Virus record (IMG/VR): IMGVR_UViG_3300025030_000071
Coordinates: 22,749-86,748 of that record
DNA: 64,000 nucleotides
Source: a virus
Reading direction: 5' to 3' (one strand)
Shown: piece after piece, positions 46,695 through 63,122 of the stretch
Numbering within the stretch: position 1 is the stretch's first letter
Layout: every line of letters starts with the position of its first letter
Translations under genes and position numbers: made by a program
Notes under the pieces: generated by a model
What the model was told of the DNA's origin: nothing
The model's database searches: none
Seen by the model: the letters and a program-made list of their open reading frames with translations, nothing else

Positions 46695-48475
46695 TGGGTA
46701 AGATATTAGACAAGTTCATTTCTACAATGCCCAAGCTCCAAGCCAGGAGTATTGAGAAAGAGCTACTGCGCCAGGAAAACAGAATCCTTTACAGCTCCCC
46801 TCAGCAATTCAGAGAAGAGTTTGTACGTCGTCTTACCTCTTTGTTAGAATCGGATTACAATGCTCAATTTGCTGCTTATCCTATTCTTGATGGCGAAAGA
46901 AGATCCTCTGAACTCTTTAACTATATGTTCAGAATCATTGGTGGTGATCTTGAAACCCTCTTTACAGAAGCAGACTTAATTGCTGAGCTTTCAGATCTAC
47001 AAACAAGAATCTATGAACAAGATATCATCTTTAGACTCTCAGCAGCTTTAGCTGAAGCAGAAACTGAAGTAGAACTTCTAGAACTCTTATTAAGCAATAC
47101 TGCTGGTCTTAAAGACGCAGTTATCGAAAACTTTAGAACTGGCAGTAACAGCCTAACTAGAAATCATCCTCTAGCTTCCTTCTTGTATATTGATCCAAAA
47201 ACCAATCATCAATATGGCCCAGCTTCAGAGATGGTAGTTGATGTTTCTGTTGGCGGACTTACCTTGCCAATTGACATAAGAAAAGCTCACCGCCCAACTG
47301 CAATAAAAGAAATCACAACAAGAGATATCAGAGATAATGACCAGCAATTTGTTCTCCCCGGCAGCGTCACTCCCAGCACTCCATCAAATAGAATAGTAAC
47401 TGGTGAAATAAGCAATCTGATCGATGGCCAATACGATACCACCTTTGTTCGGATGTTCACTGTCAACCAGTTAGTTTCTGGCGGGGCAAAGATGACCCTA
47501 TTACTTGACCTTGGAAGACCAAGAACTGCTAATTACATTACCATTGATCCAGCAAATGAATATAACCAAAAACTAACTGAACTATACTATGTTGATTCAC
47601 TTGCTAAAGTTTATGCAATTAATCTCCCAACTGATGGGGTTTCTTTAGCTGACAAGGCGATGGTCCATTTTAACCCAGTTGAAACACAGTCCTTAGTCTT
47701 AGTATTTAAACAAGAAAATGATGTTCTAGTTCCTGAATTGAATGCAGGTAACGTCCAAAAATATCGTTATACTTTTGGGCTAGATAATATTTCAGTTGGG
47801 GAAACAAGTTATCTTAAAGAAGGAGTTTATGTTTCTAGGACTTTATCTGCTGACAAGATATCTAAACTCCATCTTAAAACAACACAAAACACAAACATCG
47901 GTTTAGATGAAAACGAAGCCGAACTAGATCCAATCACAAGCCCATTGCCGACTCTTGAATACTGGGTGCACTTTAGAGAAATCGATGATAGCAACAACAT
48001 AGTTTCTCAGCTATTGCCAATTGCGCCTGTAGGAATGGAAACGATAAGAGAAAAGATATATATACAGCACAATGGAAAAGCTAGATTGAACTTTACTGTT
48101 GATCACGAGATGGCAGATGATGATGCAAGCTTAAGGCTTTATAGAGATGGGACCTTAGTGCTTAGAGATGCAGATTATACAATCGATGTTCCTGGAGTAG
48201 TTACAATCGGTTCGATACTGACAGTAGATAGAGGCTTTCAAGAGGAACATGAGTATATCGCAGAGTATATCCCCTGGCACCAAGACCAAACTAAAATACC
48301 ATTTACAGATGCTACAGAACTTGTAAGATACAACCCAGATAATACGATAGACATAACACGCCCTGCTTCTTCAAGAGCAGTAAGGTCAGAAGCTAACCTC
48401 ATTATTATCATGAGGGGAACTGGCACTGACGAAATGACTTCTATATTAGACAAATATGTCTTCTCGGTAGGCTAA
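46694..48475 (+). CDS. Virion structural protein, paralog A (helical N-term + discoidin-like domain)
   Basis: Start taken at the TAATG overlap (46694); 'NLIDGQYDTTF...LLLDLG.PR.ANYI.IDP'. Confidence 0.6.
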   Translation: MGKILDKFISTMPKLQARSIEKELLRQENRILYSSPQQFREEFVRRLTSLLESDYNAQFAAYPILDGERRSSELFNYMFRIIGGDLETLFTEADLIAELSDLQTRIYEQDIIFRLSAALAEAETEVELLELLLSNTAGLKDAVIENFRTGSNSLTRNHPLASFLYIDPKTNHQYGPASEMVVDVSVGGLTLPIDIRKAHRPTAIKEITTRDIRDNDQQFVLPGSVTPSTPSNRIVTGEISNLIDGQYDTTFVRMFTVNQLVSGGAKMTLLLDLGRPRTANYITIDPANEYNQKLTELYYVDSLAKVYAINLPTDGVSLADKAMVHFNPVETQSLVLVFKQENDVLVPELNAGNVQKYRYTFGLDNISVGETSYLKEGVYVSRTLSADKISKLHLKTTQNTNIGLDENEAELDPITSPLPTLEYWVHFREIDDSNNIVSQLLPIAPVGMETIREKIYIQHNGKARLNFTVDHEMADDDASLRLYRDGTLVLRDADYTIDVPGVVTIGSILTVDRGFQEEHEYIAEYIPWHQDQTKIPFTDATELVRYNPDNTIDITRPASSRAVRSEANLIIIMRGTGTDEMTSILDKYVFSVG

Positions 48476-51285
48476 TGAAGATCGATAAAATCCAACCAAT
48501 TGAAGGTTCAAGAATCCTCCAAGAGCAAGCGGAGAGGCTTTCTAAGCGTGTTCTATTGCCTAGCGATGTCGAACTCCTAGGTAGCGAAGTCGCTTCCCGC
48601 AGGAATGCCCTCATAGCCCTTGAAGCTGAGAATGTTGAGCCTATCGCCAAACCCCCAAAAATCCGCCCAGGAGAAATTGCAGAACCAGAGCCACTGGATG
48701 AAGTTTTAAGAAATATAGAAGAGGATTTACAAATCCTCTCAAATATCAGTGAGAACATTTCAGAAACCTTAAGAGCAAGTTACAATATAACCTCAATCAA
48801 AGAAAACAACACGATAGGACTTCTCAAGACTCTACGTGATAGGATTGCTAGCTTAAAGTTGTATGCTGCCGATTCACTTTCAAGTGATGAGCACATTGCT
48901 TACTCTTTTACGGATGGGACTAAGCTTAGAGTTCCTGATTCAGAATTCGTTGCTACTTACATAGAAGAAGAAGGAGCTATTACGCTTCCATTCTCCGCTG
49001 GCAAAATCAAAATCCCTGAGATTATTTCTACAACAATACTGGATATAAGCAATGGCGTTCCTGGCAACAACCACGATAAGACAAGACAACGCCATGCTTC
49101 GATTGACACCATATATGACAGCAACATCCATACCTGGTTTGAATATGAAAAGGTGATGAGGGATTCCGGCGAGAAGCTTACATTAGCTCTACGCTTGGAC
49201 TTTAAAGAACCAACAGTTATAAACCATATTAAAGTTATCCCTGCATTGATTGGTGCGCCCACCTGGCCAAAGATAAAAAATATCCAAGTAGACGTAGGCC
49301 AAAGACTCGTCTCTATTGCCCAGGATGTTACCAATCTCGACTGGGTATCTCTTGATGAAGTCTTTACTTTATCTCCATCAAGTTCTAAATATGCAGGTTA
49401 TGGAGCTTTTACTTTTGAACCCAAATTAGCTAGAGCTATCGTAGTCACTATTGAACAAGATAAATATTATCCAATTAGAAATGAAAGAGGAAATATTCTT
49501 TGGCGCGCAGTAATAGCTTTACGAGAGGTCCAAGCATTACAGATTCCTTTTGACAGTGAAGGAGAATTTAGTCTAGCTCCTGGAACTTTTAACAATCCAG
49601 TTCGAGCAATAGGCATCCTTCATAATGCCAAACCATTTACAGATAAAGACGCAACCATTACTTATTCAATTTCAACTGACGGAGAAGACACCTGGACAGA
49701 AATCAGCCCTTTAGAATCTAAGAACACTCTTATAGATGAAGCTTATATCTTAGAAGTTCCAACAGCAAGAGTGGCGTTAAAAGGTAAGATAAAGAGAAAC
49801 TCAGAAGCCTTTCAAGGCTCAAGAAGTACAGCTGAAGACAAATTAGAAGTAGTAGAGAAAGTCTTTCCCTTAACAACTGAAGCATCTACAAAGTACTTCT
49901 TAGATAATACCCCAGAGACTTTTGTTGAGGCCATTCAGATTGGGCTAGGTGCAGTCGGTTATAGTGCAGAGCCTCTATTCTTAGGACAAGCCACTGGATC
50001 TTTGGGCAATTCACAAACATTCAAATTACCTTTCTCAATAGAGCCTTTTAACAACAACCTATTAGTTGACAACGAGATCTGGATCTGGGCTGAAACATTC
50101 ACTAGCAATACCCATAAGGCTTACCTTTATGACGATACCACAAACCCACCTCAAATCATTCTAGGAGATGGAAAGCCAATTGGCCAAGGACTGAGCGGAC
50201 GCTTACCCGCATCAGGTACTTCTATTTACCTAATGTTTCATCCAGATAAATTGCCAATTGTATCTGGAACTGGTCCTTACAAAATAGAACTTAGTCATCA
50301 ATCAGACAAGATCAAAGGTTCAACTGAAATCTTCTTCATTGAAGAACGCCAGATTGCCGAAAAGAGAGCAGGTCCTGGAATAGCTAAAATAGAAATTCCT
50401 GACGAGCATAGAGAGACAACTTTTATTTCTCTTAGCTCATCAGAACGTACTTACTCAAATGAATTGCATCCAGTAGGAAACCAGATATTATTTTTAAATG
50501 GCTCCAAAGAATTTACTGAATTGGATTTAGAAGATGATGAATATGTTTATTCAGCAGACTCTGACACTGGCTTCCTCTACCTTCATCCAGCTAACACGGA
50601 GTCTTCTCCTGACATCGTCTATAGATATTCTTATGCACCATACAAGAAATTGACAGAAGATTGCTGGAGATACTCAGATGTGGAAAACGCAATCTATGTT
50701 GATTCGCCTTTGGCCACCCCAACAATAAAAACTTATGATATTGAAGAAGTATTAGCGGGAAGGGTATTAAACCTTCTCTATGTGCCAAGGGTTATAAAAG
50801 GATCCTTAAAAGCGGTGGATAACATAGGCGATCTTGCTTTAGCATTAGAAGTAGAAATTGCTTTCATAGATGGGGCTCAAGAATTCCAGAATCTTGGTTT
50901 GGAAGATCTAACAGGGTTCTTTAGTTTTGATTACAAGGAGAACCAACTTTATTTGCCAGAAGGGGGAACATTCCCAATAGGGACCTTGCAATATTCTGTT
51001 GTAAAATTAGAACTGCATTATGGTCGTGGCATCCAATTAAAGAAAGGCTTGGACTTTACAGCCGCCCAAAACACCATTGAAATCACTCCATACTTTATGA
51101 ACCAATATGCTGAAAGGCTAAGAAGCAGACCTGCTTACAATCGCCTGTTGGCTAGATACGATGCTAAGGTTGGGGCAAGTGTCGATGGTTCTTTGTTGGA
51201 ACAGTTCTATAGTCCTGTAATTAGAGACATTGATATTATCGGGATTACGATTGACCCAAGACTAGGAACATTAGAAAGTCTATGA
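48475..51285 (+). CDS. Virion structural protein, paralog B
   Basis: 'TIYDSNIHTWFEYE...L.LDF.EP.VINHI.V.P...F.FEP..A'. Confidence 0.6.
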   Translation: MKIDKIQPIEGSRILQEQAERLSKRVLLPSDVELLGSEVASRRNALIALEAENVEPIAKPPKIRPGEIAEPEPLDEVLRNIEEDLQILSNISENISETLRASYNITSIKENNTIGLLKTLRDRIASLKLYAADSLSSDEHIAYSFTDGTKLRVPDSEFVATYIEEEGAITLPFSAGKIKIPEIISTTILDISNGVPGNNHDKTRQRHASIDTIYDSNIHTWFEYEKVMRDSGEKLTLALRLDFKEPTVINHIKVIPALIGAPTWPKIKNIQVDVGQRLVSIAQDVTNLDWVSLDEVFTLSPSSSKYAGYGAFTFEPKLARAIVVTIEQDKYYPIRNERGNILWRAVIALREVQALQIPFDSEGEFSLAPGTFNNPVRAIGILHNAKPFTDKDATITYSISTDGEDTWTEISPLESKNTLIDEAYILEVPTARVALKGKIKRNSEAFQGSRSTAEDKLEVVEKVFPLTTEASTKYFLDNTPETFVEAIQIGLGAVGYSAEPLFLGQATGSLGNSQTFKLPFSIEPFNNNLLVDNEIWIWAETFTSNTHKAYLYDDTTNPPQIILGDGKPIGQGLSGRLPASGTSIYLMFHPDKLPIVSGTGPYKIELSHQSDKIKGSTEIFFIEERQIAEKRAGPGIAKIEIPDEHRETTFISLSSSERTYSNELHPVGNQILFLNGSKEFTELDLEDDEYVYSADSDTGFLYLHPANTESSPDIVYRYSYAPYKKLTEDCWRYSDVENAIYVDSPLATPTIKTYDIEEVLAGRVLNLLYVPRVIKGSLKAVDNIGDLALALEVEIAFIDGAQEFQNLGLEDLTGFFSFDYKENQLYLPEGGTFPIGTLQYSVVKLELHYGRGIQLKKGLDFTAAQNTIEITPYFMNQYAERLRSRPAYNRLLARYDAKVGASVDGSLLEQFYSPVIRDIDIIGITIDPRLGTLESL

Positions 51286-53423
51286 ACATCTCACAAGCAA
51301 GATTAGAAGAAGTAACTAAAGATATTCTTTTAGAATCTCTGCATAAAGGCTTAGTCCCAACCGCTGACTATTTACAGAAGTCTCTCCGGACTAAGCTGGA
51401 GGACAAAGACATAACCTTACCATTTCATGTTCAGCCTTCAGTCCCTCAGTTTAACTATCTAGAAAACTCTAGCGCCAGCAAAACAAATCAGATCTTTGAT
51501 ACAATGATATCAGATCTGAATATGCTTTATGATCTTTATACGGCAATTGAAAAGAGTGCTATTGAAGTTTCAGATAGAGTGCAGCTGAAGCTATTGAACA
51601 TTGAGAAGAGAATTGCTCAGCTTCTATCCAGAATTAATAGGCTACTTCTTGTCACAAACAGGACTGAAGGCTTCTTGGATTATGTCGGAGACAGCTTTAT
51701 CGACAAGAGCAAGGTAGATCAAACAAGGACTACTGCTATTATCGACCTGACAGGCCAAGCAGCTTACGGCGGGTATTTAACTGACCGTGTTCCAGTTACT
51801 GAGACTACAGACTTATCTGCTATCCAAAATACAAACATCCAGGTCACTCCATTAGATCCAAGACTTTCTCGTTCACCTGGCACTACTAACAGCCAGCTTA
51901 CTGATATGCTTTCAGATTCCAACACTCCTTGGATATATACTGTGAGTTCTGAACAGCCTATTCCTGCTAGCATTGAAATTCAGATTAATTTTGCCCCTGT
52001 TATAGAACAGTATGCTGCTCCAGTCGAGGCGACAAAGATAATCCTTAACCCATATATCACCAACAACTCTTTCTTAGTACTGGTTCAATACTCTGAGGAC
52101 GGTATTATATGGAACGATCTTCCTGTTGCATCACCAGCTAGAAGGATTGAAGGCCCAACTCTTTTCTTATTTGAACCACTGAATATGACCAACCTAAGAT
52201 TGATCATGACCAGCGACACTCACAGCAGACTCGGACTAGGTACCCACAAATTCATTTATGAGTTTGGCATTAGAGAGTTAGTTGTTCATGGAACCCTAGC
52301 TCGTTATGCTGAAGAAACTGAACTAGTTTCTTCTCAGCTTACTCTTCTAGATGAAGATGGTGAACGTCAGCAATTTACCCAAGTAGCCTTATCAGCAGTT
52401 TGTGAGGATGTCCCTGGAGATACACAAATCGAATACCAGATAGCATTCTTAGTTCCTGATGGAGGCAACTTAGTTGAGGGCGAATTCCAAAAGATAGTTC
52501 CATTAACAAGAGGAGATATTGATGGCGCTTCAACTCTAGTCGTTGACTCTCTCTCCACTTCTCTAAGTTCTCAGAATATAGATATAACCCCTCCTGTCTT
52601 TGCGGCGAGCACGAACAAAGCTAATAAGCTTTTGGATACAGACGTAACCTCAGTATCTAAAGTTTGGAGAAATGTTGGGGATAAAACTCGGTACTATCTA
52701 ACAAGGCAGAACGACCAACTTGCCACAGAAGACGGTTGGTTCTTTACCGGAACTCATTACCAAACATATGTTTATGTTTCTGACCAAGGTGGGAAGATTT
52801 TTGACTTTGGTGAACGCCCATTAGATATTGACGGCCTTAGGGTTTCTGGAAAAGTTCGCTTGAGTAAAGGAAACCATTTCGTCAGCACCCCAGCTACTAA
52901 CTGGACATCCCTAAAAGGCCTTTATGGAGTAGTTTCTTTTAATGAAGCCACCAAACGGTTCACAGGAAACCAAAGGGCATTTGGGGCAAGTGGCTTAGAA
53001 GATGATGAAGTTTTGGATAATAGTTATAGTGTTATTGATCACTTGTACCCTTATAACCATAAATTGATCATAGAAGGTCTTGACTACTCAGAGATATTTA
53101 ACCAGGACATCTTAAAACCAAAATATACTGGGGTAGCTAGATATGCTTCTAAATTACTAGAGAAAGTTTCTCCTACTGATCTTGAATCAAATACCACCAA
53201 TGATGATTACTCCAGATTCTCAGTAGTAAATACTGCTTCAGAAACTCAAAGAGTAATGGTGAAATGGCAGCAATACCAAGATGAATTACCAAGGGAAGAC
53301 TTTCTGGTCGAGACCAAATCAGCAGACTTTGCAGAAGGAGTTGTTCTAAAGGCAATCTTCAGAACAACAAACCCACTAAGAACAGCCGCTCTAGAGGGCT
53401 ATGAAATTAAGTTGGCACAATAA
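51282..53423 (+). CDS. Virion structural protein, paralog C
   Basis: 'DMLSDSNTPW...I.LNP...VQYSEDG..W...FLFEP...YEFGI'. Confidence 0.6.
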   Translation: MNISQARLEEVTKDILLESLHKGLVPTADYLQKSLRTKLEDKDITLPFHVQPSVPQFNYLENSSASKTNQIFDTMISDLNMLYDLYTAIEKSAIEVSDRVQLKLLNIEKRIAQLLSRINRLLLVTNRTEGFLDYVGDSFIDKSKVDQTRTTAIIDLTGQAAYGGYLTDRVPVTETTDLSAIQNTNIQVTPLDPRLSRSPGTTNSQLTDMLSDSNTPWIYTVSSEQPIPASIEIQINFAPVIEQYAAPVEATKIILNPYITNNSFLVLVQYSEDGIIWNDLPVASPARRIEGPTLFLFEPLNMTNLRLIMTSDTHSRLGLGTHKFIYEFGIRELVVHGTLARYAEETELVSSQLTLLDEDGERQQFTQVALSAVCEDVPGDTQIEYQIAFLVPDGGNLVEGEFQKIVPLTRGDIDGASTLVVDSLSTSLSSQNIDITPPVFAASTNKANKLLDTDVTSVSKVWRNVGDKTRYYLTRQNDQLATEDGWFFTGTHYQTYVYVSDQGGKIFDFGERPLDIDGLRVSGKVRLSKGNHFVSTPATNWTSLKGLYGVVSFNEATKRFTGNQRAFGASGLEDDEVLDNSYSVIDHLYPYNHKLIIEGLDYSEIFNQDILKPKYTGVARYASKLLEKVSPTDLESNTTNDDYSRFSVVNTASETQRVMVKWQQYQDELPREDFLVETKSADFAEGVVLKAIFRTTNPLRTAALEGYEIKLAQ

Positions 53424-55246
53424 TGTTTAAAAGATTATCACAGAGATCGATTGTTCGCCCAAGATTAAATGATATGTCCCAGGTCACAGATAGCTTTAGA
53501 GAAGTCATCTCTGACCTTACGGATATGAGCTTACAGTGGAATGAAAACATCTATCCACTTCTAAGTTCTTTGCCGGGCGGCAGAACAAAACAAACTGTTG
53601 CAAGTAGAACTTCTGCAATTGACCCAATCGAAAATGGGCTTGATGGTTCTCAGCTGTATATGGATATGGCCGCTACGCCTCAGGTCTACAATGGATTGCT
53701 TCATAACGGCACCCGCCCAAAAACAATCAAAGAAGTCCTTTTGGATAGTTACCAAAAAGTTCTAGCAAAAGTAGATAGGCAACAGGACATCTTAGATGAC
53801 CTTGATCTTGGAGCTACTGCATATGACGATTCTGAATTACGCAACTGGATATTACAATTAGCCGGAGATACAGTATCAGGCATTGCTCAAGGTGCTACTT
53901 ACAATGCTAACAACTTTGATAACGCCCCGGCGAAACAAGCAGAATATTCTTTACACCAACGAGATGTAGGAGTTAGGACTCTTATCGGTGTAGAAGCAGA
54001 AAGCTATGGCTACATAAACCTTTCACCCCTCTTTGTCGGAAGCAATTATCTAATTGCTGAAACTGACGTTGTAGAAGCTTTACTAGCTTTAGATGCAGCA
54101 GTATTTGCAGGGGGAGGGCTTACTACTCTCAATATTGCTTATGAAAATGGCTCATTGATAAGTGTTGATGAAGGCGACCCAGTTACTCTTACTTGTTTAG
54201 ATGGAGATATTAACGCTCTAAACATTTATGGGACCATAGCTTGTCAAGCAGAAACTCCATCCGGAGAATTACCGGTAGTTCTTGACGCCCTGTTCTTGGA
54301 AACAGCCTGGTCAGGCACAGTTGATGTTGATGACATAATAAGTCTTGAACTTTCAGGCCGCAATCTAACTCCAGCTAACAAATTCATGTATTTTGAAAAG
54401 AAAACTGGGAATATAACCACTCCAGCAGAAGCAGCAATCTATATCGGCAAGAAAACAGCAGACACAGTTGAACAATTAGGTCAGATTTATATTGGAAGAC
54501 AAACCGTAGCCAATGGTGGCGTTCCTCATCTTGCAATTGAATCCTATAAAGATGGTGCATCTTTCGCTTCAAAGATTGAAGCAGTTACCCCATTAGAAAT
54601 TACTTCAGCAGATGATATCCTTATCACTGCCGGCACAACAACCTATTTAGACTCTCCACTTGTCCCTCTTACCATAACTGTTAACTCAGTTGAATTAGGC
54701 AGAGCAGTTGGATTAACCGGCAAGTACTCTGATGCAGGGTTCCAGGGCTCAGTTGGGAGTGTTGATGGATTAAACTTTGAAACTGGAAGTCTAGAACTAA
54801 CCGGCTATGCGCCAACACGCAGTACAGCAGGGATCTTTGGAGGTGGAGAACCCGAAATCACTGCTCTCTATCGTGACAATATTATCAAGTGCAAAGGTAA
54901 GTTGGTTTTGGATCCAGTTTTCGTTGGAGACCCCGTAACAATTACCACACCTATGGCTTATGATATGTACAATGTAGGATTAGATGGGGCCGGGAAAGCT
55001 ATATCACAAATAGATATAAATGCAGGTACAGTCAAGATAGGATTCCTAACCTCTTTGCCAAATGATGATTATACCATCACCTGTGGAAGTGGCAACTGCA
55101 CAAAATTAATTCATTTTGCTGTTACTAGCCAATCAGTTGATTATTTTATCGTCAAACCATACTTCTGGAATACGATAACCTCTGCCTGGGATGTTATGAC
55201 AGCTTCTTCCGGCTTGCCATTCGACTTCCACTTCACAGTAGTTTAA
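53423..55246 (+). CDS. Tail fibre / receptor-binding-like protein
   Basis: 607 aa; helical N-term, 'D...AL.ALD', beta-rich C-term 'GTV.IGF.T.LPN.DY.I' typical of fibre tips. Confidence 0.55.
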   Translation: MFKRLSQRSIVRPRLNDMSQVTDSFREVISDLTDMSLQWNENIYPLLSSLPGGRTKQTVASRTSAIDPIENGLDGSQLYMDMAATPQVYNGLLHNGTRPKTIKEVLLDSYQKVLAKVDRQQDILDDLDLGATAYDDSELRNWILQLAGDTVSGIAQGATYNANNFDNAPAKQAEYSLHQRDVGVRTLIGVEAESYGYINLSPLFVGSNYLIAETDVVEALLALDAAVFAGGGLTTLNIAYENGSLISVDEGDPVTLTCLDGDINALNIYGTIACQAETPSGELPVVLDALFLETAWSGTVDVDDIISLELSGRNLTPANKFMYFEKKTGNITTPAEAAIYIGKKTADTVEQLGQIYIGRQTVANGGVPHLAIESYKDGASFASKIEAVTPLEITSADDILITAGTTTYLDSPLVPLTITVNSVELGRAVGLTGKYSDAGFQGSVGSVDGLNFETGSLELTGYAPTRSTAGIFGGGEPEITALYRDNIIKCKGKLVLDPVFVGDPVTITTPMAYDMYNVGLDGAGKAISQIDINAGTVKIGFLTSLPNDDYTITCGSGNCTKLIHFAVTSQSVDYFIVKPYFWNTITSAWDVMTASSGLPFDFHFTVV

Positions 55247-55259
55247 AGGACAAATCAAG

Positions 55260-55670
55260 ATGAGTAACATAATCGTATTAGGCAAATCGCCAAAACCAAC
55301 TGCCAAATTTAGTAGACCAGCTCCTAGGGCTTCACAGGTTTCTTTTGAACCTACTTCTATTCAGCCAACCCCAAAGCTAGAAATACCTTCGGCCGAACCA
55401 GCTAAAAAAGAAGAACCAGTTCATATCCCAGAACCAATTCTAGAACCAGCACCAGAAGAACCAGAGATCCATCCTCAGGATGAAAAAGACCTGATTACTT
55501 TTCATCTTGATAATTTACAATCTTCTGATTTTAAAAGAGAGCTTCAAGAAGAGGATCAACCAGAACTTGGCTCAGAAGAAGAACTTTCTTCTGAAAACAA
55601 TCAGGATATTCCTTTAGCTGATTCAATTAGGCCAAGAAAACGTAGACGAAATCCACTCCCTATTGAGTAA
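55260..55670 (+). CDS. Pro/Glu-rich disordered protein
   Basis: 136 aa low-complexity, basic termini. Confidence 0.65.
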   Translation: MSNIIVLGKSPKPTAKFSRPAPRASQVSFEPTSIQPTPKLEIPSAEPAKKEEPVHIPEPILEPAPEEPEIHPQDEKDLITFHLDNLQSSDFKRELQEEDQPELGSEEELSSENNQDIPLADSIRPRKRRRNPLPIE

Positions 55671-55675
55671 ACAAT

Positions 55676-55960
55676 ATGTCATGGCAAAAATTTTTAATTG
55701 ATAATGGTTTTAAGAGTAGAAAATTTCTTATAGTACTCTTATCAATAATTATCATTTCTATTCTAGGCGTAACTTGGGCTTGGGTCATTTGGCCAACTTC
55801 ACTATTTGATATTATTACGAGTTCAATAGTAACGTTAGCTCTAGGTTTCTGCGGCATAAACGCTACAAGAGCAGCTTTACCAATAAGTGCTTCCATGTTT
55901 GCAAAGATTCTAAAACCAAAACAAGAAACAACAGGAAATACCGAAGACTTACAACCATAA
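55676..55960 (+). CDS. Holin-like two-TM membrane protein
   Basis: 'KSRKFLI' followed by two hydrophobic helices; end of the late operon. Confidence 0.55.
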   Translation: MSWQKFLIDNGFKSRKFLIVLLSIIIISILGVTWAWVIWPTSLFDIITSSIVTLALGFCGINATRAALPISASMFAKILKPKQETTGNTEDLQP

Positions 55961-55975
55961 GGAGGAAGTACTTAT

Positions 55976-56191
55976 ATGGCAGCCACACTAACAGAACTAG
56001 AATCTGCTCTAAATTCATTAACAACAAGAATTGAACAGATAGAAAGACTAATCGCCAATCTCGTTTCTACACGACAACTAAATCAAATTTCATTAATAGT
56101 AGAATCAGATATTGGGGATTTACAAACAGACGTTGCTACTCTCAAGAGTCAAGTAACAACTTTAGAAGGGATTGTCGCTAACCTTAGCTAG
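55976..56191 (+). CDS. Small coiled-coil protein
   Basis: AAGGAGG SD; heptad repeats throughout. Confidence 0.7.
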   Translation: MAATLTELESALNSLTTRIEQIERLIANLVSTRQLNQISLIVESDIGDLQTDVATLKSQVTTLEGIVANLS

Positions 56192-56819
56192 CTCTGAGGT
56201 CTTCTGAACTAGCAACACCAGCCCACTTAATATTATAGGTCTCACCTGGAAGGAACCCTCGCCAGTGCTGCACTGGAGGAGTACTACAAATATACTTAAC
56301 AAATTTTATATTTGGATAACCTTCAATCGAATCATAGAACCTAGCTACACAGCGAAGGTTCTCAAAGACCTTGCCTACCGACTTGCCAGTCTTTTCGTCC
56401 TTCCCAGTAATAAGGGCTATTGTCTTTCCATGTAGGGAATCCATCTGTCTATAAGGCTCTTCACCTTGTTTGTAGAAGAGTTCAACCTTATAATGTTTAC
56501 CACCTTCTTTAGTGGTCTTGATAGCAAATGGTTCTAGTATATCAGCGACCCATTTCTTCCCTTCTGCGAATTTGACTCGGATCTCAGACCCGTCGCCAAT
56601 TTCATAAAAATTAACTCCAAGATCAAAATCTTTTCGAAATACAACCTGTTCCTCTTCATCCTCGGCAACCGAGGCTTCCACAGGACCAGATTCAAACCCC
56701 TCACCAAAAGCCCCAGGATCCATTTTAAGCTCCGAGGAATCTTTTTCTATAGGGTCACCTAGGGTCCCTTTTTCTGAGGGCTTAAAAACGATCGCTTTTT
56801 CTTTCTTCTTATTAGCCAT
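56184..56819 (-). CDS. Hypothetical protein
   Basis: 211 aa, AGGAG SD within upstream gene; last gene of minus-strand block. Confidence 0.75.
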   Translation of the reverse strand: MANKKKEKAIVFKPSEKGTLGDPIEKDSSELKMDPGAFGEGFESGPVEASVAEDEEEQVVFRKDFDLGVNFYEIGDGSEIRVKFAEGKKWVADILEPFAIKTTKEGGKHYKVELFYKQGEEPYRQMDSLHGKTIALITGKDEKTGKSVGKVFENLRCVARFYDSIEGYPNIKFVKYICSTPPVQHWRGFLPGETYNIKWAGVASSEDLRAS

Positions 56820-57798
56820 TCAAAGCTCCTTCACGAATACCAACCAAATCAGCTTCAGGATTTGGTTTGCCATTCCTCAAATAACAAAAACTTCTATATT
56901 CACAATAAGACTGACACAAGAAATGGCCAGGAGTATCTTTAAGACTTGCTAACGGCTTACCTGCTTTTACCCAATCTTCATAGGCAGTTTTGCCTATTTC
57001 TTCTTCATCACGCAAAGCCTCAATCTCTTCTTCAGAATAAAATCTCTTATAAGTTCTTTCGGGAATAATCCCTTCATTAATATATCTCATTTCTTCTTCA
57101 GTTGAAGCATAAATATCTTCTACAGAAAAACGTTTTTCAATATATGGAAGGAAATCTTCAGTCTCTAACTTGGCATAATGCTTACCATCAATTTCTACAA
57201 GAGTAACTGTATATTCCCTATACATGCCTGTTTGATCACGAGGAATATAAATCAACTGGAACCAATCAAGAACAAAGTCAGTTCCTTTTCCTTCAGAACA
57301 CTCCCAAAGGTAAATCATAGTCTGCATCAAAGCACTATCTTTTGGTTTCGGTTGAAATGCAGGCTGTCCTTTCCAGGGTCTAGCTCTACCTTTAATATGC
57401 TTTAAAGCACCCTGACCCCAACAACTTTTTGCTTCGGTGCCGTAGTACCTAGTGCTGCTATCGTCTGCTCTATAACGCCCAACAATGTCTAATTTACCCG
57501 AAAGATTAAAATCTTTTACATAGACCCGAACATCTTCGTGTTCATAGATACCTGCTCGCTTCATACCCTCGATAATAGCTTTCTCAACAGCATTGCCTAA
57601 AATGTGTGACAATTTAATATATAGATTGCTTGGGTCAGAATCAGGCACATCATGTATCCGATACCAATCCGCCCTCCAACAACCACCTATCTGTCTGCCA
57701 TTAGCCAGCTTAACTGAAGCCGAACTAGGATATAAAGTAGGATTTCTTCTTTCAGTAGGATGCCTTTTTCTAGTTAATTCCCTTTCAACAATAGGCAT
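56812..57798 (-). CDS. Cas4-like PD-(D/E)XK exonuclease with 4-Cys Fe-S cluster
   Basis: 'PSS...C.R..WY', 'GKLD...EAKS', 'QTMIY', C-term 'CQSYCEYRSFC'; ATG 57798 preferred as start. Confidence 0.75.
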   Translation of the reverse strand: MPIVERELTRKRHPTERRNPTLYPSSASVKLANGRQIGGCWRADWYRIHDVPDSDPSNLYIKLSHILGNAVEKAIIEGMKRAGIYEHEDVRVYVKDFNLSGKLDIVGRYRADDSSTRYYGTEAKSCWGQGALKHIKGRARPWKGQPAFQPKPKDSALMQTMIYLWECSEGKGTDFVLDWFQLIYIPRDQTGMYREYTVTLVEIDGKHYAKLETEDFLPYIEKRFSVEDIYASTEEEMRYINEGIIPERTYKRFYSEEEIEALRDEEEIGKTAYEDWVKAGKPLASLKDTPGHFLCQSYCEYRSFCYLRNGKPNPEADLVGIREGALNG

Positions 57799-57802
57799 TA
57801 AA

Positions 57803-58702
57803 TTAAAAACCAATTCTTTTCTCCGTTTTTATTACATCAGTAATATGCGACTCAAGTCCTATTGAAAAATCATTAAATGAAATCAAAGAAACATCTGCTA
57901 GACTTAAGTCTTTATTGTCATTAGCTAATGCAAAATGCTCTCTAGCTTTATTCAACAATAAATTTTCCACTATGTCCCTGACTGAAGCACCAGTCAAAGA
58001 CTTCACTTTGCTTATAGAAATATCATAAGGACTAAAATCAAAAAGCTTTCTACTTACTCGGTTCTCAGCTAATCTCATGTGCTTATCCATTACTATCAAA
58101 ACATCTTCAGGTAACAAAGGAAGAAACTTAATTTCTTTAAACCTGCCAGGCCTTTTCAAAGCCTTATCAACAGTTTCCCAGACATTTGAAGTAGCAATGA
58201 TAGTAAAGTTTTCACAATCTTCTAAACCACCATCAATCCATTTAATAAAAAAGTTAGTCTTTTTCTTATCACCACTATGGGCATTGGCTTCTGTTCTATC
58301 TTGAAAAAGCATATCAGCTTCATCAATCAAGATAAGTACATGCCCATGTTCTTTAGATACCTTAGCAGCTAAAGCTTTAAATTCCCTTAGTTTTGAAATT
58401 GCATCATCATACAAATGAGAAGCTAAATCTTCATAACTAAGTTCCATTAACGGGCATTGTATCTCGTTAGCTAAAGCCCTAACACTGGCCGTCTTACCCG
58501 TTCCGGGTGGCCCAGTTAAAGCAATAGCATTAGGTTTCTTTACTGCCCAAGATTCAAAAATACCTGGGAAAGAAACTTGATTAACTAAGTCTCTTAAAGC
58601 TTCTATGGCCTCTTTTTGACCGACAATAAAATCCAATCTTATGTCAGGCTCAACGACCACTAAGCTATCACTAAAATCTATTTCAGTCTCTTTCCTTTCC
58701 AC
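57803..58702 (-). CDS. AAA+ ATPase (classic AAA clade)
   Basis: Walker A GPPGTGKT, Walker B ILIDEAD, SRH 'IATSN..ETVD.ALKRPGRF'. Confidence 0.9.
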   Translation of the reverse strand: MERKETEIDFSDSLVVVEPDIRLDFIVGQKEAIEALRDLVNQVSFPGIFESWAVKKPNAIALTGPPGTGKTASVRALANEIQCPLMELSYEDLASHLYDDAISKLREFKALAAKVSKEHGHVLILIDEADMLFQDRTEANAHSGDKKKTNFFIKWIDGGLEDCENFTIIATSNVWETVDKALKRPGRFKEIKFLPLLPEDVLIVMDKHMRLAENRVSRKLFDFSPYDISISKVKSLTGASVRDIVENLLLNKAREHFALANDNKDLSLADVSLISFNDFSIGLESHITDVIKTEKRIGF

Positions 58703-59483
58703 TATTATAATATTCCTGCAATTTACTATGGATACTATTTAAATGTCTCTTAATAGTATCTTTATCTCGTTGTAACCTTTCTCCAATCGCCACCACGGAC
58801 AAACCTTCTCTATAAACTAAAGAAAGCAAATACCTTTCATATACAGTTAACCTCTTATAAATTGTTTCTATCGGCGACATAACCCAGTTAAGATCAAAAT
58901 CAGTTTTAATTAACTCTGGATCTTCATCGGTTAAACTATGCATATCGATCAAGAAATCCATAGGATCTCCATAAGTCTCATCTTCTTGGCAATCAGAAAA
59001 ACTTACTTTCTTATTTAATGGATCTCTTACAAACTTTGTAAACCAATCTTTTAATCTAAATCTAAACATCTTAGTCAAAGGATTAGAAGCATCTACTCCT
59101 TCATGGATTGTGTACCTACTAAGATAAGTTAAAAAGATAAGCGTAAATTCAGCTTTCAGATCTTCTTTAGTAAGTCCTCGTGCTGAATGAACAATGTAAT
59201 TACGTTGATGAATGAAATTAGCGAATGTTTTTGGGCGCCCACTTAAGAACAAACCAAGAAAAACTCTAGTATCATAATTCTTTAAATCGATAGGTGCCCC
59301 AAGAAATAAACTTACATATTTCTCTAAATACCCATCAAAGAATTCTAATATCTGAGCTTGAGCATAACGCTTTTCTTTTGCTTCTCCATTAATATATTGA
59401 TAACACAAGATATTAATAAGATCGATATCTTCATTTTGGATCTTACGTCCAAGGGCTTTTTCTTTCTCAGTAACAAGGGCCAA
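58683..59483 (-). CDS. Phage sigma-70-family-like transcription factor
   Basis: Region-2-like 'EDL.AEF...F.....RY' and region-4 HTH 'LT.YER.LL.L.Y.EGLS...IG.RL......IK'; TTG start with GAGGAG SD. Confidence 0.65.
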   Translation of the reverse strand: MALVTEKEKALGRKIQNEDIDLINILCYQYINGEAKEKRYAQAQILEFFDGYLEKYVSLFLGAPIDLKNYDTRVFLGLFLSGRPKTFANFIHQRNYIVHSARGLTKEDLKAEFTLIFLTYLSRYTIHEGVDASNPLTKMFRFRLKDWFTKFVRDPLNKKVSFSDCQEDETYGDPMDFLIDMHSLTDEDPELIKTDFDLNWVMSPIETIYKRLTVYERYLLSLVYREGLSVVAIGERLQRDKDTIKRHLNSIHSKLQEYYNSGKERD

Positions 59484-59518
59484 GAACAGCTCTCCTCGCT
59501 ACACCATCCATCTACATT

Positions 59519-60010
59519 TTAGATTACTTCGTTATAAAAACTCAAATAAATCTTAGTACTTGGAGGACAAGAAACTTTTTTATTGTCCTCATCTCGCATC
59601 ACACCGGCATAATACTTACGGCAATCCATAAACCAAACTTGTCTGTCATCCTTCCACGCAATACCAGTTAATGCATCAAGCATAGCTTTTAAAACATTAT
59701 CTATATCAGGCTTTGCTAAATGATGGATAGGATCCATGCCGAGTCTTTCCTGCATCATACCTACCGGCCGAGGAAAATAAAAATGAGCCCCAACTTGTAC
59801 TAATCCCTGATGAGGGAAAGCAACCTTCTTCTCAACAGCAATCTTTCCAAGAGCATTTTCAAAACCCTCTCTAACCGCTTGTTTATATTCCTTAACATTA
59901 TTATCATTAGGAGTATACATCTTAATAAGGTTACCACGCCTAGCGGCTTTAATTCTGGGTTGAGCTATTGGTCTACCAAGAACCTCATAATCAATCAATA
60001 TCATTCTCAT
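59519..60010 (-). CDS. rusA: RusA-family Holliday junction resolvase
   Basis: 'KPDIDNVLKAMLDALTGIAWKDDRQV' RusA catalytic signature. Confidence 0.9.
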   Translation of the reverse strand: MRMILIDYEVLGRPIAQPRIKAARRGNLIKMYTPNDNNVKEYKQAVREGFENALGKIAVEKKVAFPHQGLVQVGAHFYFPRPVGMMQERLGMDPIHHLAKPDIDNVLKAMLDALTGIAWKDDRQVWFMDCRKYYAGVMRDEDNKKVSCPPSTKIYLSFYNEVI

Positions 60011-60367
60011 CCCCTAGGCTTCTTTTATAAGCTTTAGCTAACTGATATTTTTCCTTTCTAATACTTTTAGCTAACTCTTTTCTCTCTTGATAGTAACTAC
60101 TTTCTTTATATAGTTCATAAGAACATCGCCAACAACTTCTCTTATATCTAACCCAATTATCTGAAGTATTTTCCTTTATAGCAGTTAAGCATTTATCCTT
60201 AAAAGAAACAATATCAGTTAAATCATCATCAAACCAAATACAAATTAAACTGATACCTTGCTCAACGCAAAGGTCCTCTTTCCGCTTATCCCTATGCTTA
60301 GAAGCTAAAAACCCACCTTGATCTTTATGGAAGTGCTCAACAAATTCCCTATGCTGTCTTCCATGAC
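59991..60367 (-). CDS. Exon 2 of intron-split Vsr/DUF559-like nuclease
   Basis: Open frame (C)HGRQHREFVEHFH...RDKRKEDLCVEQGISLICIW...DENDID*, no start codon of its own in frame; absent from ORF track. Confidence 0.8.
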
Positions 60368-61454
60368 CAGTTTTGTTATCACTAAAGTTTTTTATCTCTA
60401 GTTTCTATATGTCACCATATAGCTCAGCATATATCATCGCCCTCGACTCTACGTTAGGGCGTCCAGCGCTCGTGGTAGTTTTATTGGATGAGTTCCTCAA
60501 CTACTATGCGTTGCACCTTCCATCTTACTTTGATACTCTTCTGATGGCTTGGCTCAGAATTTTCTGCAATTGTTTTTCATCTAGCCAATAAGGCTGTGAA
60601 GTATCTAAACGCAATAAATAAATATCATTTTCCAAACAAAAAGCATCTTTAATTAGATCTTTTTCTCTTTGATAAAAATATCTTTCATCACCATAAAGGC
60701 CTTTTATCCTATGTATAGGGCCATCAACCTCAATAGCAAAATTAATCGATGGTATCCAAAAATCTAATTCTAAAAAACAATTAGTTACAAGATTCTTAAT
60801 TAAGGAACGATGTCTCCTAAAAACAAGTTCTCTATTAACTAAATTTGCCAAAAGATTAAAAACATAGTCTTCTGCTCCGGACTGCCCCAGCGGCTTAACA
60901 CCTTTTTGACGCCTATACTTTTTTAAACGTGATCGCTCTTTAACTAAGCATCCATCACATTTTACAAAATTAGTAATAGGCTGAGCGCATTCTGTGCACA
61001 AACCATTAGATTTAAGATAAGCTCTTCTTTTCCGCCTTTTTAAACGAATTTCAGTTTTTTCTTCATCAGTAAAATTTTTTCTTCTGTTTTTCTTTTCAAC
61101 AGATTCTCTTTCTTTTTTTCTATCTGATGCACAAAAAAAACAGTATACATTCCTAGTATGCTTATCAATCTTTGTTTCACAAGTTTTACACGATCTATAA
61201 AGCTGAATCTTTAGCTTTTGCTCACGCTTTTCACTATAGATTTTTCTAGAATAAATACGTTTACGCTCTAACTCAAAAATAGTTTTACATTCAAAACAAC
61301 GTTTTTTATTACCATGACCAAATAATTCTTTATTACACTCTAAACAATTCATTAGATATACTCCATAAACTAAATGTTGTATACCTCGCAATAACAGACT
61401 TCCTCTGAATTCACTGGATTATTCGACTATAATTTCTTATAGAAGGAGCAATCT
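60368..61454 (-). ncRNA. Group I self-splicing intron (1087 nt) with internal nuclease ORF
   Basis: P1 GAGU/GCUC with U-G at the 5' splice site; P3 CCAGUG/CGCUGG; P4 UUCAGA/UCUGAG; P7 GCAUA/UAUGC; P9 CUAUAUG-GUGA-CAUAUAG; terminal G; removal restores the reading frame. Confidence 0.88.
60525..61352 (-). CDS. Intron-encoded putative homing endonuclease (Zn-ribbon repeats + Vsr/DUF559-like domain)
   Basis: ATG 61352 with GGAG SD; six CxxC motifs, Lys/Arg-rich; 'ELDFWIP....AIEVDGPIH...KD..KD.FC....I.LLR'. Confidence 0.8.
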   Translation of the reverse strand: MNCLECNKELFGHGNKKRCFECKTIFELERKRIYSRKIYSEKREQKLKIQLYRSCKTCETKIDKHTRNVYCFFCASDRKKERESVEKKNRRKNFTDEEKTEIRLKRRKRRAYLKSNGLCTECAQPITNFVKCDGCLVKERSRLKKYRRQKGVKPLGQSGAEDYVFNLLANLVNRELVFRRHRSLIKNLVTNCFLELDFWIPSINFAIEVDGPIHRIKGLYGDERYFYQREKDLIKDAFCLENDIYLLRLDTSQPYWLDEKQLQKILSQAIRRVSK

Positions 61455-61593
61455 ACTCTATTCCAAGACCATAATCTGGCAAATAAAAATCCAGCCTAAG
61501 CCCTTCACCTAAATGAAACTCAGACTGGATCTTTACATCTATCCCAAAAATATTAAGTATTAAATCTTTAACTTGCTCCGATAACTTTGACAT
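61455..61593 (-). CDS. Exon 1 of intron-split Vsr/DUF559-like nuclease
   Basis: MSKLSEQVKDLILNIFGIDVKIQSEFHLGEGLRLDFYLPDYGLGIE plus 1 nt; joins exon 2 to give GIECHGRQH, 171 aa total. Confidence 0.8.
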
Positions 61594-61897
61594 TATTCCA
61601 CACCGATATTGGCCTATTAATTGATGTAGGAGGAATTCTCCAAACTACTGGCCCATCCTTATAGGCACAGATACAAATCTCACAATCAAGAATACCTAAA
61701 TCTTTATACATATCTAACAAAGCAATCATGTCTCCCGAAATACCGAAGACTTCTTTTACACCCTTTAACCATTTGGCATCATCAGAATTCTCATAACGAT
61801 AATACCAAACAAAGTCTTTAATATGTTCTAAATCACTTTCGTTCCAGATGCTACCCTTAACACCTGGAAAAATTCTATATGATTCACCTTTTTTCAT
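61568..61897 (-). CDS. Hypothetical protein
   Basis: 109 aa, ATGA-coupled to upstream gene. Confidence 0.65.
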   Translation of the reverse strand: MKKGESYRIFPGVKGSIWNESDLEHIKDFVWYYRYENSDDAKWLKGVKEVFGISGDMIALLDMYKDLGILDCEICICAYKDGPVVWRIPPTSINRPISVWNNVKVIGAS

Positions 61898-62586
61898 CTA
61901 ACATTAACCGCCTCACATACCGAAACCAAAGGGCATGTAATACAAGAACTCGTATTAGGATATGTAGTTTTAATCTGCATAGATTGCATAACAGAAGCAA
62001 AATCTAATAAAGCAGATTCAAAATATCGGTTGGTAGGCTTCATCTCTAACGCAGACAGCAAACGAATAGGGCCAACTGCAAGAACATAGATCTTGTTTAC
62101 AGGTAAATCCTCATTTAAAACAACACTCGTATAACGAACAGAAGGCTCAACAAACAAAAGATTTTCATTAAGAGTACTATTCAAAATAAAAACCAGATCT
62201 ACTTTACCAGCAGTTTGTATAACAACTGGAATTTCAGAAACAAGTTGATGACCGTAAACTAAAGAAGAAGACATGCTATAATTTACGGCTAAAACTTCTC
62301 CATTTACATCAGTATACCAGTCATACAATTTGGTTAAAAGTAATATTGATTGGTTAAATTCTTTCTGAGTGAATTCAACAACAGAAGCTTCGCATAAAGA
62401 CTTCCATTTCTTCTCAAATCTAGCCCAAGAAAACTTTCCTCCAGATTCCATATCATGCCTAAAAGCAAACTCAACTATTTGCCTAACAAGAAGTGCATAA
62501 TCCGTTAAAGGTGCCACATGGCCACCTTGTTCATAGAATTTAGGACAAAAAGAAAAACCCACTAACTCATTTATAGATGCTTTCAT
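61894..62586 (-). CDS. Degenerate Cas4/AddB-like PD-(D/E)XK-fold protein
   Basis: N-term 'FCPKFY', C-term 'PN...C..CP....C' Fe-S cysteines, 'GKVDLV' but no following (D/E)xK. Confidence 0.55.
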   Translation of the reverse strand: MKASINELVGFSFCPKFYEQGGHVAPLTDYALLVRQIVEFAFRHDMESGGKFSWARFEKKWKSLCEASVVEFTQKEFNQSILLLTKLYDWYTDVNGEVLAVNYSMSSSLVYGHQLVSEIPVVIQTAGKVDLVFILNSTLNENLLFVEPSVRYTSVVLNEDLPVNKIYVLAVGPIRLLSALEMKPTNRYFESALLDFASVMQSMQIKTTYPNTSSCITCPLVSVCEAVNVR

Positions 62587-63122
62587 GTTGCTTTAATATT
62601 CACCACCGTAAAAGAAATACAATCTTTGTTCTCTTCTATCATCTGTTTTAGTTTTCTTTGATCATCATTAAGTCTGGCATTCTTACCAGTCTTAACATCC
62701 ATAAATTCAATACAACCAAGGCTATTTTCATCTGGAAACTTAATAGCTAAGAAATCTACTATGTCATTAATAGGAATCAATCTATCGTAATCTGACTTAA
62801 GCTTTAAAAAACCAATAAGTTCACCCATCTTACCGCTAGTTGTATTCACCGAACCTTGGATAACATTAAGAGTTTTGGTTGGAACATCTTTTAACTGGCT
62901 TTGGAGATTGCTTAATTGTCTGTCTTGAGTACCCAAAAAGTTTTGCATCTCTCTTAAAGAATCCCTCATGCCACCACTAACATCAGAAACCTTTTGTCTT
63001 AAAGAAGAATTGGCATCCTTTTCGGAGTTTAGTTGTTTTACAAGTTCAGCCAACGTCTTACCCTGGCGCCATAAAACAAAACTAGAACATACTATGCACA
63101 CAATAATAACCAACCAAGTCAC
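62583..63122 (-). CDS. Membrane-anchored endonuclease related to archaeal Holliday junction resolvase (Endonuc_Holl-like)
   Basis: N-terminal TM helix + coiled coil; 'GK.GE...VDFL...IEF.DVKTG.NARL...QR.LK..IE'. Confidence 0.7.
   Translation of the reverse strand: MTWLVIIVCIVCSSFVLWRQGKTLAELVKQLNSEKDANSSLRQKVSDVSGGMRDSLREMQNFLGTQDRQLSNLQSQLKDVPTKTLNVIQGSVNTTSGKMGELIGFLKLKSDYDRLIPINDIVDFLAIKFPDENSLGCIEFMDVKTGKNARLNDDQRKLKQMIEENKDCISFTVVNIKAT

Follow-up and report, generated by a model that had tools for sequence, protein, structure and literature searches.

A putative mobile group I intron in a conserved Vsr-like nuclease gene of an uncultured groundwater phage

I-Bth0305I is a homing endonuclease of the EDxHD family encoded by a group I intron that interrupts the recA gene in Bacillus phage 0305phi8-36 (PMC3239194; PDB 3R3P). 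Its catalytic residues are D196, H213 and D222, with a spacing of 17 between D196 and H213 (PMC3239194). [quoted passage not shown] Here, a 64,000-nucleotide (nt) stretch of the virus record IMGVR_UViG_3300025030_000071 (the window, on which all positions are numbered) was analyzed, and a 1087-nt insert was located in a small nuclease gene on the minus strand, the strand of both gene and insert. The insert is, with a probability of about 90%, a mobile IA-type phage group I intron in a conserved 171-amino acid (aa) Vsr-like nuclease gene. As described for I-Bth0305I (PMC3239194), the open reading frame (ORF) of the insert interrupts the P5 helix and starts about 90-100 nt into the intron, its predicted product combines a DNA-binding region at the N-terminus with a Vsr-like nuclease domain at the C-terminus, and the insertion lies in a conserved motif of a DNA-metabolism gene. 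As in the PMC12350094 enzymes, several Cys-containing repeats of about 60 aa precede a Vsr-like nuclease domain of about 100 aa inside what would be a self-splicing phage intron.

Exons of the split nuclease gene

Exon 1 holds the invariant Asp (LDFYLP) and Glu (GIE) of the nuclease family, and its 46-aa translation ends ...LDFYLPDYGLGIE. As an ORF it comprises 46 codons (61593..61456, minus strand), ends ...LRLDFYLPDYGLGIE and runs into TAG. The exon 2 frame is open from 60365 downward, lacks a start codon, stops at TGA (59993-59991) and shares 20 nt at its 3' end with the start of the RusA gene. Joining GAG T/GT CAT (the slash marks the junction) restores a Cys codon and a 171-aa nuclease frame, ...GIE-C-HGRQH.... 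These exons (61593-61455 and 60367-59991, with 1087 nt between them) had been proposed in a sequence-only reading of the window, and the coordinates were exact on re-reading. The same reading held both exons to be absent from the automatic ORF list. Exon 1 is in fact listed, as a 46-aa ORF at the 30-aa cut-off; the statement stands for exon 2, the frame without a start codon.

The two exons match neighboring parts of the PHROG profile phrog_559, at positions 307-353 and 356-416, respectively. Against the contiguous homologue P0001, exon 1 aligns with residues 3-48 (57% identity) and exon 2 starts at residue 50 (47% identity), leaving a single residue missing between the matches. One residue also separates the two exon matches in contiguous homologues of 148-168 aa; those retrieved with exon 2 as query measure 166-168 aa. 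The exons are interpreted as halves of one gene because their matches to contiguous proteins leave exactly one residue between them. The sequence-only reading had made its case depend on contiguous homologues of the joined protein, and these exist; in IMG/VR the nuclease domain has over 350 contiguous relatives. A 32-sequence alignment of the host family shows D37, F38, L40, E48, G51, Q53, H54, D75 and K78 to be invariant, and the column after E48 and before residue 50 to be variable (V, Y, F, L and often C).

An AlphaFold model of P0001 (pLDDT 89.3), for which alignment A4 served as input, was used for structural comparison. The best PDB matches of the model were 1vsr (Vsr, E 6e-4, probability 1.00), PvuRts1I, RAP-domain proteins and 3r3p, the I-Bth0305I catalytic domain (probability 0.98, TM-score 0.61 on the target). 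According to this model, the host gene product has a Vsr-type alpha/beta nuclease fold and is a putative nuclease, which agrees with the earlier description of the host as a small Vsr/DUF559-like nuclease. Pfam gave sub-threshold matches to DUF2726, DUF5889, DUF559 and PvuRts1I-like_N. PDB sequence searches with the intron ORF, P0001 and the family profile returned no relevant match, and a search of phage 0305phi8-36 for I-Bth0305I with the intron ORF and the family profile found only gp194. The catalytic residues of Vsr are D51, H69 and D97. The D37-to-H54 spacing of the host family is 17, as between D196 and H213 of I-Bth0305I, compared by column number.

Probable ribozyme and ORF of the insert

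The element falls into a frequent and already described class, that of phage group I introns with EDxHD-type nucleases. A blastn search with the 3' 163 nt of the intron matched 62 phage records, including the terL-splitting intron of Staphylococcus phage 6ec and Arcanobacterium phage TPWB06 (matched at its 3' end), a position immediately beyond the annotated terL of the crAss-like phage cr7_1, and a Twort-like Staphylococcus phage intron that itself scores 83.4 bits with the Rfam family RF00028 (Intron_gpI). Homology to this family with its Rfam-passing member extends to both ribozyme halves; in the 5' half, UCCAGUG-AAU-UCAGAGGAAGUC has counterparts such as CUGGAUG-AAU-UCAGUGAAACUC elsewhere in the family. 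The terminal G lies at the same distance from GAUAACAAA as in the crAss-like terL introns, which have the same tail. A pattern search of IMG/VR based on P9 returned 87 stretches, or about 70 distinct sequences.

A related arrangement was seen in cr7_1 itself (L081, NC_055895.1), in which a complete compact intron of the same family occupies 2440-2640, directly after the annotated end of terL. The terL 3' exon is apparently unannotated there. The arrangement recurs in dozens of IMG/VR crAss-like contigs, with exon 2 beginning (A/G)(T/C)GA(T/C)CA(T/C)GA.

RF00028 aligns to 60664..60405 with 27.7 bits and E 2e-5, below its curated gathering cut-off of 50. The covariance-model check suggested by the sequence-only reading thus succeeded for the 3' half in alignment and fell short in score. 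High posterior probabilities go with the placement of P4', P6, J6/7 (AAGGUGCAACG), P7, P3', P8, J8/7 and P9 in this alignment. The 5' half is pushed into the ORF coding sequence, and the real 5' half lies about 820 nt upstream. The low score is attributed to the 816-nt ORF loop in P5, which parts the halves so that only the 3' half aligns.

The complete fold is given in Table 1. Every element named in the sequence-only reading is present, namely P1 with its U-G pair, P3, P4, P7 (GCAUA/UAUGC), a GUGA-capped P9 and the terminal G. GAU of the P1 loop can pair with exon-2 GUC as a putative P10. P4-P6 are in register with the Rfam-passing Twort-like intron, and P4 is also backed by an informal comparison with a few family members. 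An initial fold drawn by hand had put the ORF in the P6 loop; it was dropped when set against the Rfam alignment and relatives that lack an ORF, which place the ORF in the P5 loop.

Table 1. Features of the split nuclease locus. Block P5'/P4'/P6 spans 60516..60572 and the 5' strands of P4-P5 span 61389..61408.
Feature	Position	Strand	Description
Exon 1	61455..61593	-	46 codons and first base (T, 61455) of the split codon
Insert, probable group I intron of the IA-type phage family	60368..61454	-	1087 nt, one long ORF inside
Exon 2	59991..60367	-	GT finishes the split TGT (Cys) codon, then HGRQHREFVEHFHK...; 124 codons to stop
P1	61446..61458	-	exon GAGU (61458-61455) with internal guide GCUC (61449-61446); loop AGAUU
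P2 hairpin	61427..61442	-	CUAUAA-GAAA-UUAUAG
P3 5' strand	61412..61418	-	UCCAGUG, pairs with CGCUGGA 60468-60462; then J3/4 AAU
P4 5' strand	61408-61403	-	UCAGAG; then J4/5 GAAG
P5 5' strand	61398-61389	-	UCUGUUAUUG
P5 3' strand	60572-60563	-	CAAUUGCAGA
P4 3' strand	60559-60554	-	UUCUGA, then GCCAAG
P6	60547-60520	-	CCAUC...GAUGG; ORF stop codon in loop
Catalytic core	60423..60515	-	J6/7 AAGGUGCAACG, P7, P7.1/7.2, P3 3' strand, P8, J8/7 AUGAUA
P7	60509-60505 / 60431-60427	-	GCAUA/UAUGC
P7.1/7.2	60504-60475	-	
P8	60461-60438	-	
P9	60422-60405	-	CUAUAUG-GUGA-CAUAUAG
P9.1	60402-60381	-	
3' tail	within 60368..60422	-	GAUAACAAAACUG, ends in terminal G 60368
Intron ORF, putative homing endonuclease	60525..61352	-	275 aa from ATG 61352; GGAG 8 nt upstream
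Recombination/replication module	57803-63122	-	PF10107 (Endonuc_Holl-like), Cas4-like, 109-aa ORF, split nuclease, RusA, HTH_38, AAA ATPase

Covariation was measured in an alignment of 32 diverse 3' halves, including that of the window intron, to which the structure was applied for P7, P7.1, P8, P9 and P9.1. Pairing was found in 95.5% of cells, and both sides change in 20 of the 30 pairs. The covariation score was 0.495 compared with 0.07-0.11 when partners were slid by 1-3 columns, a control in which 24-47% of cells pair, and none of 500 shuffles matched the observed score. P7, P7.1, P8 and P9.1 covary across the 32 sequences, as does one of the seven P9 pairs (U-A with C-G). P3 was examined in 55 family members by a search for 7 nt that pair with the P3' strand and precede AA. 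In 2 kb of sequence at the present locus there is one such site, UCCAGUG-AAU-UCAGAGGAAGUC, 991 nt upstream of P9. A fully pairing partner was present in 43 of the 55 members, a count that includes some chance matches; the P3 sequences are many and different, and the helix covaries across the family. The P3 site lies 770-1080 nt upstream in several members, which implies an ORF behind P4 in these as well. When a tetraloop was put in place of the P5 loop, the minimum free energy fold recovered P1, P3, P4, P5, P6, P7.1, P8, P9 and P9.1, that is, all nested helices except P2, which was swapped for an exon pairing; its energy was 3.2 standard deviations below mononucleotide shuffles.

A second test of the fold is the orthologous intron of L178, a phage contig described below. 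Over the last 270 nt compared, the two introns are 76% identical (207 of 274 columns, including 28 nt of exon 2). The GAGU/GCUC pairing of P1 is identical. Compensatory changes are found in two pairs each of P3 and P8, in P9.1 and throughout P2, which reads UUAAGG-GAAA-CCUUAA in L178. The group I assignment made from the window alone is upheld by this covariation of helices and by the homology to bona fide phage group I introns.

The intron ORF lies within the 816-nt P5 loop, and its last 16 or so codons overlap P5', P4' and P6. ATG 61352 was chosen as the start; the program-made ORF list starts this ORF at TTG 61391. The predicted protein, in which three CxxC...CxxC modules precede a nuclease domain of Vsr/EDxHD-like type at the C-terminus (...LELDFWIPSINFAIEVDGPIHR...), resembles gp194 (zinc ribbon and nuclease) of phage 0305phi8-36, and matches phrog_559 (E 1e-12) and phrog_9084 'homing endonuclease' (2e-9). 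By these sequence comparisons, the host gene and the intron ORF belong to the same nuclease family, and the intron ORF is a putative homing endonuclease. A search of IMG/VR with exact peptide words of the ORF found no relatives. The nuclease domain has 38-46% identity to other family members, which are closer than the host subfamily, and host-subfamily rows are absent from its 14 best matches. A recent copying of the host gene into the intron was rejected for this reason.

A hairpin at 61353-61385 (minus strand), AGGUAUAC...GUAUAUCU, with -9.5 kcal/mol, lies upstream of the intron ORF and covers its Shine-Dalgarno sequence. The equivalent hairpin of L178 (about 4148-4180), AUGGGAGAC...GUCUCUCAU, also masks part of the AUG, and the stem covaries, two U-A pairs in the window being G-C in L178. 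The hairpin may limit translation of the intron nuclease. A translation limitation of this sort is described for I-TevI.

The host insertion site and the stretch of the ORF that encodes its own IEVDG...H are identical at 18 of 30 positions by hand count. It is conceivable, though a long shot, that the intron nuclease recognizes DNA encoding the shared catalytic motif of its own family, and that the lineage could spread among paralogous Vsr-like nuclease and homing-endonuclease genes. If so, the locus would document a shift between housekeeping and selfish forms of a phage nuclease.

Alleles that carry or lack the insert

Related loci were found by a metagenome scan followed by tblastn with the neighboring proteins. 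The nuclease module is present in five further contigs (L174-L178), six counting the window, from marine, lake and groundwater metagenomes, and this synteny bears out the earlier expectation that the host gene is conserved. The gene order is a Holliday-junction-resolvase-like endonuclease, a Cas4-like protein, an ORF of about 109 aa, the nuclease, RusA, a helix-turn-helix (HTH) protein and an AAA ATPase. The Cas4-like label is our designation for a 230-aa protein with a C-terminal Cys cluster and no Pfam or PHROG match, and the approximately 109-aa ORF was matched by tblastn in L175 only and by eye in L178. The module is fully syntenic in L174 and L178, with protein identities of 35-53%; L175-L177 are short contigs with only parts of it.

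The intron-less alleles that the sequence-only reading had proposed to seek in relatives are found in L174-L177. In these four syntenic contigs the nuclease gene is uninterrupted, and the exon equivalents are separated by one codon (GTG or TTT); three of the four sites read GAGT/TTCAYGG. L178, a lake or groundwater phage contig, carries an orthologous 921-nt intron at the same place and codon phase, and the 231-aa ORF inside is homologous. There, exon 1 closes with GAGT and exon 2 opens with AT/CAT, giving Tyr, the residue present in P0002 and P0003. The intron and its ORF are thus patchily distributed at one site, present in the window and L178 and absent from L174-L177. This pattern of intron-plus and intron-less alleles is predicted by a spliced mobile intron and is hard to fit with a dead gene.

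Group I introns follow a rule by which the last base of the 5' exon is a U that pairs with a G of P1 and the last intron base is a G. Here these are the U61455-G61449 pair and G 60368, and L178 follows the same rule in the same codon phase. The insertion point follows the first base of the codon next to the invariant Glu of the I-E-x-x-G-x-Q-H motif. In the proposed mechanism, the ribozyme of the transcript would fold from P1 to P9.1, and exogenous guanosine would attack the phosphate after U61455, held in place by the P1 U-G pair. The freed exon 1 would then attack after the terminal G at 60368, joining GAG T/GT CAT into an intact nuclease with the predicted ligated junction GGAATAGAGT/GTCATGGAAGA. 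The P5-loop nuclease would cut intron-less alleles near GAGT/NTCATGG, and double-strand-break repair would copy the intron in. Such homing would explain the presence of the intron in some syntenic relatives and its absence from others. We infer splicing, endonuclease activity and the target site from homology and comparative genomics.

Neither an exon joint nor an intron-less contig was found in the contigs of four DNA runs. In a second sample 60152-61444 was uncovered, but a contig extends 11 nt into the intron, and the missing cover is therefore no evidence for an empty site.

Depth at the locus is uneven in the likely source sample. Its Logan contigs break at 60782-60790 and 61604-61630, and the piece between, which comprises exon 1, the 5' part of the intron and the ORF up to two-thirds of its length, has a depth of 4.8 compared with about 12 on either side. 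The limits of this drop differ from the intron ends; it might reflect strain variation, a deletion variant or AT-bias.

The patchy distribution could also come from intron loss or reverse splicing of a genuine intron whose ORF is a maturase or a degenerate remnant. In favor of this reading, the window and L178 ORFs are just 38% identical and differ in length (275 versus 231 aa). Both ORFs are nevertheless intact and keep the D...E-x-D-G-x-x-H nuclease motif, and the families they match are annotated as homing or intron-encoded nucleases. The combination of Cys repeats and a Vsr/EDxHD-like domain in a P5 loop also has parallels in I-Bth0305I and in a described group of homing endonuclease genes (PMC12350094, PMC3239194). 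A non-homing ORF is unlikely on this evidence, and a putative homing endonuclease is the preferred assignment.

Several observations weigh against a spliced group I intron in a Vsr-like gene. No RNA run is listed with the locus, and the spliced junction was thus not observed. P1 has only 4 bp and P10 about 3. Intron_gpI gave no match for the whole window, for 2 kb or for the 3' 186 nt (gathering threshold and E<=10), and the match that falls short of the curated threshold (27.7 versus 50 bits) surfaced only with 60395-60680 as the query or in a genome-level search. The near-invariance of P9 is a selection effect, P9 having been the search pattern. The link of the host family to Vsr and I-Bth0305I comes from fold comparison and weak Pfam matches because sequence profiles miss both. 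The Rfam score was taken as a limit of the model and was not counted against the intron because Rfam likewise misses the terL introns with ORFs in phages 6ec and cr7_1.

The Rfam score and the short P1 would also suit a dead gene, in which a mobile cassette of a homing-nuclease gene and intron remains was inserted, the ribozyme is inactive, and the exons are decaying pseudogene fragments. The exon frames are open, however, and all invariant residues (D, F, L, E, G, Q, H, D and K) are kept in both phages, whose exon proteins are only 39-52% identical yet intact. Helices are maintained by compensatory changes between the window and L178, and both introns follow the rule of U(-1) and terminal G at the same phase. 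Decay of the gene is therefore very improbable, and splicing of an active intron is favored.

An entirely different element is extremely unlikely. TAG recoding is known in crAss-like phages (PMC7886860), and only the interrupted frame itself speaks for recoding, a group II intron, an IStron, an intein-like element or a bypassed coding gap. These readings were all rejected: Rfam gave no group II or other match, the insert ends A...G after U and not GUGYG...AY, it encodes no reverse transcriptase or transposase and, unlike an intein, is out of frame, and read-through of the TAG reaches TGA 13 codons on. To our knowledge, 1087 nt far exceeds any known translational bypass.

Significance and comparison with known systems

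A gene that automatic annotation missed entirely, leaving a 46-aa stub and a start-less fragment, would thus be an intact nuclease gene, conserved as part of a replication/recombination module in a clade of uncultured phages. The intron family, which in crAss-like and Staphylococcus phages also enters terminase genes, thereby gains a new host gene and insertion site. The intron-plus allele, the diverged orthologous intron and the intron-less alleles form a natural trio for homing tests, and endonucleases with Cys repeats and a Vsr/EDxHD-like domain are little studied. What is new is the host gene, a syntenic Vsr-like nuclease of an uncultured groundwater phage, and the shared family of host and passenger. 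The nesting of a nuclease in a nuclease is a curiosity rather than a new principle.

By sequence comparison the phage is distant from anything cultured, and megablast of the locus against cultured phages returned no match. Five large ORFs at 48475-57813 (936, 713, 607, 333 and 211 aa) have no Pfam match, and the 936-aa ORF had no tblastn match in 50,697 phage records.

The closest ribozymes are those of the Twort-like, 6ec terL and crAss-like terL introns, which belong to the same family. J6/7, P7, J8/7 and P9 are near-identical (up to 94% over 35 nt), and P7.1/7.2, P9.1 and the GAUAACAAA..G tail are common to these introns and that of the window. They differ in occupying other host genes, and many have no ORF or encode other nuclease types.

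Another close match is gp194 of phage 0305phi8-36, a free-standing 170-aa 'homing nuclease' that shares its nuclease domain with the host gene (E 9e-16 to P0001 and E 9e-20 to the family profile). Its zinc ribbon resembles that of the intron ORF, and genes of RecB and RuvC type are nearby. It differs in the reversed domain order (zinc ribbon, then nuclease), in having no intron and in its annotation as a selfish gene. Unlike gp194, the host gene of the window is syntenically conserved.

The described endonucleases differ from the window ORF in host and in N-terminus. The enzymes of PMC12350094 reside in the virion RNA polymerase and other genes, and a possible CapR/DUF723 likeness of the window ORF repeats comes from one tblastn match to a DUF723-annotated gene. 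I-Bth0305I gave no direct sequence-profile match, and the fold match to it was obtained for the host family and not for the intron ORF. Compared with I-Bth0305I, the window intron interrupts a small Vsr-like nuclease gene in place of recA, and its putative endonuclease begins with three Cys-repeat (zinc-ribbon-like) modules in place of NUMOD/HTH elements.

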